Source: Octopus vulgaris (taxonomy: Eukaryota). Taken from it: DNA of 64,000 nucleotides. Made by a program: the position numbers and the translations under genes. This document shows positions 19,101 through 25,100 of the stretch, piece by piece (positions within the stretch are counted from its first letter, which is position 1; every line of letters starts with the position of its first letter). The DNA lies in the NCBI GenBank assembly GCA_951406725.2, contig OX597838.1:19034001-19098000 (forward strand). Reading direction: 5' to 3'. The notes beneath the pieces were generated by a model. That model did not search any database and was not told the origin of the DNA. It worked only from the letters and a program-made list of their open reading frames with translations.

Positions 19101-22100
19101 TTAGGCACAGGAGTTGCTGTGTAGTAAGTAGCTTGCTTACAAACCACATGGTTCCGGTTCAGTCCCACTGCATGGCACCTTGGGCAAGTGTCTTTTACTA
19201 TAGCCTCGGGCCGATCAAAGCCTTGAGAGTGGATTTTGGTAGACGGAAACTGAAAGAAGCCCGTCGTATATATGTATGTGTGTGTTTGTATGTCTGTGTG
19301 TCCCCCCCCTCAACATCGCTTGACAACCGATGCTGGTGTGTTTACGTCCCTGTCACTTAGCGGTTCGGCAAAACAGACCGATAGAATGTCCTGGGGTCGA
19401 TTTGCTTGACTAAAGGCGGAGCTCCAGCATGGCCGCAGTCAAATGACTGAAACAAGTAAAAGAGTTAGTCTGACAAACTATATATTGTTTCTATGTCTCA
19501 TTGAGAACTAAAGTGAAACAGAAAACCATATTTTGTTGGACTAACAATTATGGATTAAATATATATATGTATGTATGTGTTCTTATATATATATATATCT
19601 AGCATCGAATGGTTATCAACTGCTATTTCCAGCAAAAACTGGGACCTTGTTGTGCCACTATTTCCAATTTATAATTCTACCTTTATGGTGCTTTATTCCG
19701 CTGGAAAACGATACTATTGTATTGTAATATGTAGCGCATATCTTAAATTTAGTCTTTTCAGTAGACCCAGCCGATGAGGACCAAACATTTTTACGATAAT
19801 AAACACATTCTGAAAAGTCTGAGCACTAGGTTGTCCATTTCTCTGGCATTCTTCCCAGAGGTAAGACGAAAATTTTTCATGTTCGCCACCTGCACACACA
19901 ACTTTTGCCTCTACGTATTTAGTACGGCTTTACCTAGCATTGAATGGTTATCAACTGCTGTTTCCAGCAAAAATTGGTACCTTGTAGTGCAACCATTTCC
20001 TATATACATGAGCATATATATGCATATATATATATGTGTGTGTGTGTGTATATGTGTGTAAATATATATAAATCATCATCATCGTTTAGCGTCCGCTTTC
20101 CATGCTAGAATGGGTTGGATGGTTCAACTGGGGTGTGGGAAGCCAGAAGGCTGCGCCAGGCCCAGTCTGATCTGGCAATGTTTCTATGGCTGGATGCCCT
20201 TCCTAATGCCAACCACTCCATGAGTGTAGTGGGTGCTTTTTACGTGCCACCGGCACAGGTGCCAAGCGAGGCTGGCAAACGGCCACGATCGCATGGTGCT
20301 TTTCACGTGCCACCGGCAGTAATGGTAAGACAACAAAAGAATGAATGAGACCTTGATATGTAAATAGAGGAATTTATCTGTAACTAGCAGTATCGCCCGG
20401 CGTTGCTCGGGTTTGTAAGGGAAATAACTATATAAGCATTTTTAGAGATGTAAAGAATAATAGCCACCTCAATATGGTTAACCACAAAGGGGGAGGAGTG
20501 TTACTGTAGCTTTTTACGTTCTGAGATTTAATAATAAATTTTTAGAGAGTTACTTCCCTTATATATGCCAAAAATGCATTAAAAAGGGGGAAAATTGATG
20601 GTAAATTTTTTTTTAAATCATAGACTCATCGTAGACGTGCGCTAATACCCAGAAGGGCTCGATATGAATCACGACTATAAGATACCTGGTTTTGGTTAAA
20701 CTGCACCGCAAAATGTGGGAGTAGTTAGGAATCTAAATCGTAGGAGACAGACACCACACAACCTCACTTTTATATATATAGATATAATATGTGACAATTA
20801 TTCAGTTGCCATAATAAGACTGAGTTTTGGATGTCAGGGCAGAAAACTGCTCCGGCATCTCGTCAGTTATTGAGGCAATCAAAAAAATGCTATGAAAATG
20901 ATCGTTAAACGAAGGGAAATTACTCTGTAATTGACCATTATTAAGACAAAAGAGATATTAGAATGACTTAAGAGGAAAAAAACCTAGGGGAGAAAGTCAA
21001 AAAGTAAAGAAGTAAAATTGCTCATAGAAATTGCGTATGCGTGCATATACATACATATGCACACCCACATACATGGGTCTATATGCATATGCTCACTCAC
21101 ACTCGCATGAAACATACATGTGCACACACATATGCCAATATATGCACATATATATGCAACCATGCATGTACACGTATGCATACGTGCACACATGGGCACA
21201 TACCCGTACGCGCACAATTATATTCAAATACAAGTCTAAAAATGTGCACATGCTATAAATGCAATACTCACTCACGTGAAACACTCGCATGTACACCCAT
21301 ATATATATGCAACTGTACACATGTACATATATACATACCTGCACACACAAACAATGTATATACCACTATGTGCACAAAAAAGTTCATATACATGTCTATA
21401 TACGCACATACACAAGAAAAATGCAGGTAAAGATAAAATACAGAAAAAAAAATTGGTAAAAATATATAAAGCAATAAAGATATATCTATAAATATGTAAA
21501 AAATATATAAAAAGTATATAGAGATAAAATGCTTGTACATGGACACAATATAAGAAACAAGTTCTGTAATCTTGGGGGGACCAAAAACGTAACAAATATT
21601 TAGCCATATGTGGACATGATTCAAAAGGTTCAGTTCTTGAATTTAGACATGTAGCGGGGTCTAATCTGCTTTTCCAGATGAGCCATCTTTCCATATCACA
21701 AAGACTGCACTTTCCACTGCCACTGGTGTAAGGCTTACACTTGGCTAAGATCTTCCAGTGGGTGTTGTAACTGACACCTTTATCTTTTAAGGACCATATA
21801 TGACTGGATAATTTGGTTGTTTTCCTTTTATCCCACTGCCTGAAGCTCAAGGTGTGATTGTTGAACCTGACCTTGAAATTCCCCTCTGTAAGACCCACAT
21901 ATTTCTTTTTCAAAACTGTGTCCTTAGTGGTTGTAGAGTCTATGGTGGCTTCATAAATGATGGTCCCGGACATGCAGGCTCCATTTAGCAGGCGCAAATT
22001 TTTATCCCCGCATGAACAGCTGGTTTGATTTTGTGGTTTTTGTGTGTTGTGTGTGATTATATTTTTAAAATTAGTAGTTGAGCTAAAACTGATTTTTAAG

Positions 22101-25100
22101 TTATGTCTATTGAAGAGCATTCTGTAACTATGATTGACTGGAAAATGTTTATCTCTCAGTGCTAAGAAATACTTACCTATATTGAAGATCACTTCAGGTG
22201 AGTGTGAACCAGATAGTTTTCCTTTTCTTTATTATTGGACTGGTGACAGGTGTATAGGTTATTGCCTCGTTAAATCCACTATCTTTTAGAGCCTTATTAT
22301 ATACTGGGGCAACGCTATTAAAAATGTCCCTATCAGAGTAGAGGCTAGAAATTCCTATGCTAATTTTTTTAACTAAATTTTTAAACACTATGGAGGGATG
22401 GTAGGAACCCACATTAATATAACTAAGTCTATCATTGGGCTTTCTGTAGGGTTTATAAATATTCTTGTTTAGATCTAAGGATACATCTAGGAAATTGACA
22501 ACTGTCAGGTTGGTATCTGTAGTTTTGCTAAGACCGAAAGTTTTCATCGTTTGGATAATGTCCTTCCTAAACCGATCTTGTGCTGGTCCATTGATATTTC
22601 TGGTTAAAGCTAGGACATCATCTTTGTAAATGGTGAAATATACATCAGGGAAAGCCTTGCTCAACGTATCGAGTAGGAATAGGCATATGCAATCTCATTT
22701 GACTATTCCTACTCGATACATTGGGCAAGACTTTCCCTGATGTATATTTCACCTTTTACAAAGATGATGCCCTCACCTTAACCACAAATACCAATGGACT
22801 AGCACAAGATCGGTTTAGGAAGGACATTATCCAAACGATGAAAACTTTCGGTCTTAGCAAAACTACAGATACCAACCTGACAGTTGTCAATTTCCTAGAT
22901 GTATCCTTAGATCTAAACAAGAATATTTATAAACCCTACAGGAAGCCCAATGATAGACTTAGTTATATTAATGTGGGTTCCTGCACACCACCCCCACCCC
23001 ATAGTGTTTAAAAATTTAGTTAACAACATTAGTAAAAGAATTTCTAGCCTCTCCTCTAATAAGGACATTTTTAATAGCATTGCCCTAGTATATAATAAGG
23101 CTCTAAAAGATAGTGGATTTAACGAGGAAATAACCTATACACCTGTCACCAGTTCAATAATAAAGAAAAGAAAAACTATCTGGTTCACACTCACCTGAAG
23201 TGATCTTCAATATAGGTAAGTATTTCTTAGCACTGATAGACATTTTCCAGTCAATCATAGTTACAGAATGCTCTTCAATAGACAACTTAAAAATCAGTTT
23301 TAGCTCAACTACTAATTTTAAAAATATAATCACACACAACACACAAAAACCACAAAATTAAACCAGCTGTTCATGCAGGGATAAAAATTTGTGCCCACTA
23401 AATGGAGCTTGCATGTCCGGGACCATCATTTATGAAGACACCATAGACTCTACAACCACAAAGGACACAGTTTTGGAAAAGAAATAAGTGGGTCTTACAG
23501 AGGGGAATTTTAAGGCCAGGTTCAACAATCATACCTTGAGCTTCAGGCAGTGGGGTAAAAAGAAAACGACCAAATTATCCAGTCATATATGGTCCTTAAA
23601 AGATAAAGGTGTCAGTTATAACACCCACTGGAAGATCTTAGCCATGTGTAAGCCTTACACCAGTGGCAGTGGAAAGTGCAGTCTTTGCGATATGGAAAGA
23701 TGGCTCATCTGGAAAAGCAGATTAGACCCCGCTACATGTCTAAATTCAAGAACTGAACCTTTTGAATCATGTCCACATATGGCTAAATATTTGTTACGTT
23801 TTTGGTCCCCACAAGATTACAGAACTTGCTTCTTATATTGTGTCCATGGACAAGCATTTTATCTCTATATACTTTTTATATATTTTTTACATATTTATAG
23901 ATATATCTTTATTGCTTTATATATTTTTACCAATTTTTTTTTCTGTATTTTATCTTTACCTGCATTTTTCTTGTGTATGTGCGTATATAGACATGTATAT
24001 GAACTTTTTGTGCACATAGTGGTATATACATTGTTTGTGTGTGCAGGTATGTATATATGTACATGTGTACAGTTGCATATATATATGGGTGTACATGCGA
24101 GTGTTTCACGTGAGTGAGTATTGCATTTATAGCATGTGCACATTTTTAGACTTGTATTTGAATATAATTGTGCGCGTACGGGTATGTGCCCATGTGTGCA
24201 CGTATGCATACGTGTACATGCATGGTTGCATATATATGTGCATATATTGGCATGTGTGTGCACATGTATGTTTCATGCGAGTGTGAGTGAGCATATGCAT
24301 ATAGACCCATGTATGTGGGTGTGCATATGTATGTATATGCACGCATACGCAATTTCTATGAGCAATTTTACTTCTTTACTTTTTGACTTTCTCCCCTAGG
24401 TTTTTTTCCTCTTAAACAGTCATTCTAATATCTCTTTTGTCTTAATAATGGTCAATTACATAGTAATTTCCCTTCGTTTAACGATCATTTTCATAGCATT
24501 TTTTTGATTGCCTCAATAACTGACGAGATGCCAGAGCAGTTTTCCACCCCGATATCTGAAACTCAGAGGCTTATTATGGTAACCGAATAATTGTCATATA
24601 TTATATTACAGATATATATATATATATATATACATGTAATTGCATGGAAGGGGTTGATAAGCCATTTAAGAAACACAAAAACCATTAGATTCACTTCAAC
24701 ATTTAAATTTAATTTGCCAAAATATTTTCATCGCTTTGAAACCGCGACCTGTTCACTGACAACATTCCGTGCTGCATCTGAGAAAGTAACAGTTAGTTCA
24801 TGATATATATATATATATGTATGTACGTGTGTATGTATATATGTGTGTAAGTATGTATGTATGTATGTATGTGCGCGTGTGCGTGTGTAGATGCATGCCT
24901 GTGCGTATGTACTTATGTATGTACGTGAATATTTAGGTAAGTGTGTAGACATGTCTGTGTGTGTGTCTGTATGTACATGTGAACATATGTTTATGTACTA
25001 ATGTGTGTTCAAGTTGTATACATGACTTACTTTGTTGAAGGTTGTATACACACACATACATACATACGCATATATATAGACACACACGTGTGTGTGTGTG

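Follow-up and report, generated by a model that had tools for sequence, protein, structure and literature searches.

A palindrome built from two copies of one retroelement lies in an intron of the DNA-repair gene SLF1 of Octopus vulgaris, within a 64,000-nt stretch (assembly GCA_951406725.2, contig OX597838.1, positions 19,034,001 to 19,098,000; hereafter the window, numbered from its first letter). The element is a Penelope-like element (PLE), assigned by its motifs to the Hydra clade. In two subfamilies of this genome, copies with two head-to-head arms follow, with few exceptions, a one-tail rule: one outer end carries a short terminal tail and the other lacks it. We think that the window palindrome is probably one old, dead insertion, made by dual priming at two fixed start sites and head-to-head end joining and altered later by conversion between its arms.

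Self-BLAST of the window returned a single long inverted match (20771-24616, 95.3% identity), in agreement with an original prediction, made from the sequence alone, of ~1.9-kb arms around a 20-nt spacer. The whole palindrome spans ~3.8 kb, and its arms differ by 62 substitutions, 46 of them transitions. As that prediction also held, the spacer is element-derived: it is the stretch of family reverse transcriptase (RT) sequence that directly precedes the right arm (a scan of 25 loci gave 14 matches, at 12 distinct loci). The end of the left arm matches the family bases preceding the spacer at 5 of 7 nt, the last two exactly, a 2-nt microhomology. The left arm had been given too short an extent; it resumes beyond a later insert, reaches the family end site 1 and continues into a 56-nt family tail that stops at 20319. 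The right arm ends at site 1 without a tail and is followed by (TA)n. The tail in the window therefore sits on the left arm, which is 20 nt the shorter at its 5′ end. A target-site duplication is unreadable in the (TA)n target. Using an Octopus bimaculoides protein named SLF1 as tblastn query, we obtained 16 exon matches on the minus strand, flanking the element on both sides and bearing out its intronic position.

One tail per palindrome

A first DNA search of the 2.8-Gb genome gave 2086 first-look candidates; among the 40 of these that were scored, the copy nearest to the window element was at 88%. A second DNA search yielded a sister subfamily that is young; its unit measures 2591 nt and includes one intact open reading frame (ORF) of 709 aa. 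Its end motif had 2273 exact matches, of which the first 100 listed formed 62 clusters in genome order, 28 head-to-head and 0 tail-to-tail. We took 60 of the 62 as the young sample (a 13.7-kb array and the last cluster were omitted) and found 34 two-armed head-to-head, 22 single and 4 complex loci. By extrapolation, the genome has ~1400 young loci. For the window's own subfamily, 60 regions were taken from the top of a list of 381 motif matches, and 32 were two-armed. The window palindrome is a routine product of its family, in which about half of the insertions are two-armed. Nor is its size, originally called giant, out of the ordinary: both arms exceed 1 kb in 7 of the 60 young loci, and 2 of these 7 are symmetric within 20 nt, as in the window.

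In 33 of the 34 young pairs, one end fell at site 1 and the other at site 2, 67 nt further. Pairs of the older, own subfamily were mixed in 29 of 32 cases, with one tailed and one untailed end. The sequence at either site is ATA^AAT, whichever the subfamily. Single-armed copies ended at site 1 and site 2 in a ratio of 11:11. Two independent priming events choosing freely between the sites would give about half like-ended pairs; all 33 classified young pairs were unlike, and free choice therefore does not fit. Nor does the tail belong to one kind of arm. The tailed arm was 5′-longer in 20 and shorter in 14 young pairs, which rules out an idea derived from a biased set, that the tail always lies on the 5′-shorter arm as the mark of a trailing polymerase. 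When only offsets >30 nt were counted (range 41-2973 nt), the tailed arm was longer in 13 and shorter in 8.

Minor alleles were shared across the arms of one insertion 23 times (4.5 expected) and discordant 3 times (46.8 expected), indicating that both arms come from one source; divergence was 0.36% between arms of one insertion versus 0.93% between loci. The 5′ ends of the arms were also coupled. They lay within 30 nt of each other in 13 of 34 pairs versus 2.5 by permutation, and among the 23 pairs with both arms >200 nt they coincided in 4 versus 0.78 expected (p 0.004). Junctions showed 1-5 nt overlap in 20 cases, were blunt in 5 and contained inserts in 9, some copied from adjacent sequence (these classes rest on BLAST edges and are approximate).

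Two cDNAs, one per target strand, each with its own start site and joined through short microhomology, would account for all of these end-rule data. We propose that, once a (TA)n target is cut, each of its strands would prime one cDNA, presumably through an enzyme dimer and on a single RNA molecule, that each cDNA would start at one of two fixed sites ~65 nt apart on the element RNA, and that the two cDNA ends would be joined head to head by microhomology-type end joining. The 20-nt offset in the window would then reflect both polymerases halting at almost one place, with subsequent trimming to a short microhomology. More tentatively, dual priming might be the normal integration route: the subunits of a dimer would each prime one strand, from a start site of its own, on one RNA, all insertions would start two-armed, single copies would have lost one arm, and tail and inverted repeat would be one phenomenon.

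The original prediction had proposed one insertion event with fold-back second-strand synthesis. The single event is upheld, since the window arms are sisters in a tree of copies (100/100 support) rather than members of two subfamilies; the fold-back is not. Fold-back, or self-priming, would have one first strand (cDNA or antisense RNA) turn at a short inverted repeat and copy itself, an endonuclease trimming the ends. It is the published reading of PLE palindromes (PMC3846280), and it would accommodate the variants common to both arms, the excess of near-symmetric junctions and the imperfect 7-nt hairpin with a 20-nt loop at the window junction. The loop-bearing longer arm would be the template, however, so that the tail would be expected on one arm class, against the 13 longer and 8 shorter of 21 clear cases. 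In the window, the tail lies on the shorter arm, a sequence that the supposed template lacks. To rescue fold-back, the ends would have to be trimmed with a 67-nt stagger of either polarity, and loops as long as 3 kb would have to close on 1-5 nt. Because the family tail falls on either arm, and nearly always on exactly one, we regard fold-back as unlikely.

Dual priming could also have used two separate RNAs of the same source, an asymmetric dimer giving each strand its own start site. This would explain the one-tail rule and the shared variants equally well and would avoid one polymerase displacing the cDNA of the other; it does not alone predict 5′ ends that coincide beyond sequence hot spots, as counted above, and we give it a small chance. 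Two independent insertions, a later inverted duplication at the DNA level or an assembly artefact are very improbable. No listed contig bridges the centre of the palindrome, these being contigs of sequencing runs and uninformative for a repeat. On the other side, the arms are sisters that end at the two canonical ends of the family, their differences are transition-biased, and one arm carries an insert that the other lacks. Three other runs, two of them under other organism labels, contain contigs of 101-130 nt that match the beginning of the right arm with a single difference; they speak for a real, old insertion.

Several points weigh against dual priming on one RNA. One of the 34 young pairs was unclassifiable for its end sites, and 3 of the 32 old pairs break the one-tail rule (2 untailed at both ends, 1 doubly tailed). 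At the window junction the sequence naturally forms a hairpin, imperfect (5/7 nt) but suited to fold-back, and one RNA and two RNAs of one source both fit the data. The biochemistry comes from a Poseidon element, and its extension to a Hydra-type family would be by analogy; in vitro, the Poseidon element showed no start-site difference between strands, which does not bear out a strict use of one site each (PMC11167929).

Some loci depart from the simple pattern in other ways. At L082, L117 and L027 an inverted upstream piece without a 3′ end resembles the internal twin-priming pattern of L1. Truncations at the 5′ end cluster in two places (L081-L140), one 100-125 nt ahead of site 1, immediately preceding the hammerhead, and the other at around 435-450 nt, and the main arm of L007 starts at the same base as the right arm of the window, which hints at a stop hot spot. 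Five tandem units stand head to head with two units in an array at G000:C1:57208853-57222579. Finally, L013, L016, L017 and L018 (G000:C17) represent one old insertion in four segmental duplicates, two of which are inverted neighbours.

Coding content, clade and hammerheads of the element

Both arms carry a partial RT, a linker, an endonuclease and a 3′ untranslated region (UTR), as originally predicted, the endonuclease being C-terminal and the UTR AT-rich; the CxCx5C linker motif, also ascribed to both, is intact in the right arm and has lost its third Cys in the left. The sister ORF has the same order as the two window arms, with RT (YKDD at 347), linker (558) and endonuclease (577-692). 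It contains RWK at 38 and DKT at 115, motifs found in 111 and 118, respectively, of 119 proteins in the alignment; truncation has removed this part from the window arms. CxCx5C occurs in 118 of the 119 proteins as well as in the sister ORF. The right arm and the sister ORF share CxxC and CxH around a conserved E and N, with no CCHH, and the sister ORF has no Cys between IIYEA (577) and YVG (597). TA runs border 33 of the 34 young pairs at both ends. The predicted structure of the sister ORF (predicted local distance difference test score 93.6) has telomerase RT as its best structural match in PDB (E 1.4e-9), with other RTs close behind. This ORF gave no match in Pfam, despite >1000 database relatives, and a sequence search of PDB was empty; a GIY-YIG domain was matched in 1 of 12 homologs, below the cut-off, and the endonuclease label is based on motifs.

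The identification as a PLE is supported by the telomerase-like predicted RT. Its original assignment to Naiad is contradicted by the motifs. Naiad elements have the endonuclease N-terminal to the RT, CCHH cysteines between GIY and YIG, a DKA motif and no hammerhead (PMC8557442). Here the endonuclease is C-terminal, a hammerhead is present, there is no CCHH and the motif reads DKT instead of DKA. Traits listed for the Hydra clade are RT followed by a C-terminal endonuclease, RWK, DKT, CxCx5C, CxxC, CxH, no CCHH, a hammerhead, a (TA)n target and a unit <3 kb (PMC8557442). We therefore assign the window element to the Hydra clade on these motifs and on its likeness by eye to Hydra-1_Obim, rather than on an RT tree of named clades. 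The intact 709-aa ORF of the young subfamily (copies ~99% alike), at L078:1445-3571 on the minus strand (G000:C17:48.48 Mb), itself lies within a 6.4-kb palindrome.

The family appears to carry a canonical type I hammerhead near its 3′ end. In a fold drawn by hand over 25 copies, 91.7% of cells were paired, versus 33-55% in slid controls. Two-sided changes in stems I and II numbered 17 versus 6.3 when shuffled, an excess inflated by the relatedness of the copies. Rfam gave no hammerhead match at E up to 1, its only matches being to microsatellites or hairpin microRNAs and below the cut-off, and single-sequence folds of the two window hammerheads were weak (z 0.88 and -1.78). In the window, each of the two copies has been damaged by lesions of its own, as the original prediction had stated. 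In the young subfamily (L081-L140), all 84 of 84 parsed hammerheads have a CCGAnGA core instead of CUGAnGA.

Later history of the arms and surrounding features

The substitutions between the window arms are unevenly spread: coding sites (~1140) have 50 of them and the outer 150 nt have 12, and a 611-nt stretch of 3′ UTR has none. Among 200000 random placements, 0 reached a substitution-free gap of 611 nt. Paralogs are less well conserved in this 3′ UTR tract than in any other part (67-87% identity in local matches of partial length). Across age-matched pairs, 404 of 3853 sites (~10%) are mismatched and the longest identical run is 81; for six long-armed pairs of this kind the count is 343 of 3404; the outer 150 nt of the window arms, at 8%, are like these pairs. 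In a tree of 38 copies, the sister arms share a stem of 0.031, and their total depth is that of other subfamily members. Three deletions (an 8-nt frameshift, 15 nt and 4 nt) are common to both arms and found in none of the 36 other copies. The frameshift had been noticed before; it gives no date for the insertion, and later copying from arm to arm explains it better.

Repeated arm-to-arm gene conversion fits the uneven divergence best, and we are fairly confident of it. Set against it, no second case of conversion was found in 11 other long-armed pairs, and an assembly effect may lie behind the 611-nt identical tract. A decayed source copy could have supplied the shared deletions; it cannot explain the identical tract. 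Two further candidates were rejected. The young near-perfect palindrome L094 has 31 shared changes, with 15 synonymous to 11 non-synonymous, many of which recur at other loci and point to a source lineage; identity tracts in L061-L075 were edge artefacts. Conversion can reset arm identity in PLE palindromes, and identity is therefore no date for them.

An SLF1 pre-mRNA containing both arms would be expected to pair over ~1.9 kb; as originally suggested, it might be edited by ADAR or feed small interfering RNAs, and the DNA might form a cruciform. RNA editing is notably heavy in octopus. The variants that young arms share showed no A-to-G excess (4/21 private) and no sign of edited templates. 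In one presumed RNA run, the family contigs had a spectrum of changes like that of DNA runs, which is uninformative on expression or editing. If dual priming is the normal route, hundreds of kilobase palindromes, some of them intronic, would be potential sources of double-stranded RNA.

The features of the palindrome are collected in Table 1. The insert in its left arm is putatively Helitron-like, to judge from its end structure. The same SLF1 intron holds a second decayed RT and GIY-YIG element on the minus strand (25456-27387), with weak Pfam matches and unlike the window family. Another SLF1 intron contains a 317-bp tandem array of ~13.5 copies, >99% alike (32415-36703). Self-BLAST also revealed two smaller palindromes, at 15976-16301 (88%) and 11510-11732 (90%).

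Table 1. Parts of the palindrome and its setting, in window positions.
Feature	Position	Strand	Remarks
SLF1 intron housing the element	18685..30978	-	edges approximate, from tblastn exon matches 18529-18684 and 30979-31038
Family tail	20319..20374	-	56 of ~65 nt, left arm only; interrupted by a SINE (short interspersed nuclear element)-like repeat, 20072-20318; TA-rich run further out
Left arm beyond the insert	20375..20383	-	reaches family end site 1 (20375)
Later insert into left arm, presumably Helitron-like	20384..20782	-	TC...CTAG ends, A^T site; second copy at 40245-40635
Left arm, 5′-truncated Hydra-type PLE copy	20783..22682	-	partial RT, linker, endonuclease, 3′ UTR, hammerhead; 5′ end falls 20 nt short of that of the right arm
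Type I hammerhead motif, left arm	20813..20871	-	sense to SLF1; GAAA to AAAA, stem III minus 2 nt
Spacer	22683..22702	+	additional 5′ RT sequence of right arm; 2-nt junction microhomology
Right arm, 5′-truncated copy	22703..24614	+	stops at site 1, untailed, then (TA)n
CxCx5C linker motif, Hydra type	23368..23394	+	right arm, intact
Substitution-free tract between arms, 611 nt	23850..24460	+	counterpart in left arm 20926-21536; three 1-3-nt indels; probably a conversion tract
Type I hammerhead motif, right arm	24515..24575	+	cleavage triplet GUC to GGC

Relation to known retroelements and palindromes

The window locus is dead debris, of value as a pointer to how PLE inverted repeats and tails are formed. 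The proposed route resembles twin priming of L1, in which the other target strand also serves as primer, giving a second cDNA from the RNA, and the junction shows microhomology. In L1, however, the second primer lands internally and gives a 5′ inversion, whereas in the Hydra-type family a fixed 3′-end site would be used and the 3′ end duplicated. Whether dual priming is the normal route can be tested directly in this genome, thanks to its Hydra family that is young, intact and high in copy number.

Hydra-clade PLEs with an endonuclease, including Hydra-1_Obim and Penelope-13_HM, were described by Craig et al. 2021 (PMC8557442). The window family is like them in having RT followed by a C-terminal endonuclease, the same motif set, a unit <3 kb, a hammerhead and a (TA)n target. 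It is a separate family from Hydra-1_Obim, differing from it, compared by eye, in its hammerhead and flanks, and its tail measures ~65 nt rather than 30-40 nt (PMC8557442). The supplement lists an octopus Hydra family and, for Penelope-13_HM, a 5′-truncated inverted copy together with hammerheads on the two strands (PMC8557442 supplement), and the legend of Fig. 2 notes an inverted copy with the tail often at one end only (PMC8557442). The accessible text of that paper ascribes the tail to endonuclease resolution and gives no count of tails against arms.

For the Poseidon element PAc, the purified protein was shown to cut both strands of the target and to extend both (Frangieh et al. 2024, PMC11167929). 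Its RT starts at two internal sites, one on either side of the tail; a dimer is predicted, and later steps are left open (PMC11167929). PAc belongs to another clade than the window family, and in the accessible text its start sites are not tied to inverted copies (PMC11167929). Both papers state the origin of PLE inverted repeats and tails as open (PMC8557442, PMC11167929). Each of the three components (inverted copies, tails, two start sites) is already published; their linkage by the one-tail rule was met in no paper of the literature searched. That search, which covered few subscription papers and did not extend to the early Penelope reviews, found neither the rule nor a proposal of twin priming for inverted copies of PLEs.

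Penelope palindromes of Adineta vaga, like that in the window, are head-to-head inverted copies with short junction palindromes and a tail on one inverted pseudo-long terminal repeat; they have been explained by self-priming on an antisense template, unlike the dual priming favoured here (PMC3846280). The family counts (one tail per palindrome, on either arm, with one source and coupled 5′ ends) favour dual priming over this published self-priming. Sex-chromosome palindromes, which undergo gene conversion between their arms, likewise show identity tracts between inverted arms (PMC3723533 and others); their arms are tens of kilobases long and contain genes, whereas those in the window are 1.9 kb of a dead intronic transposon.

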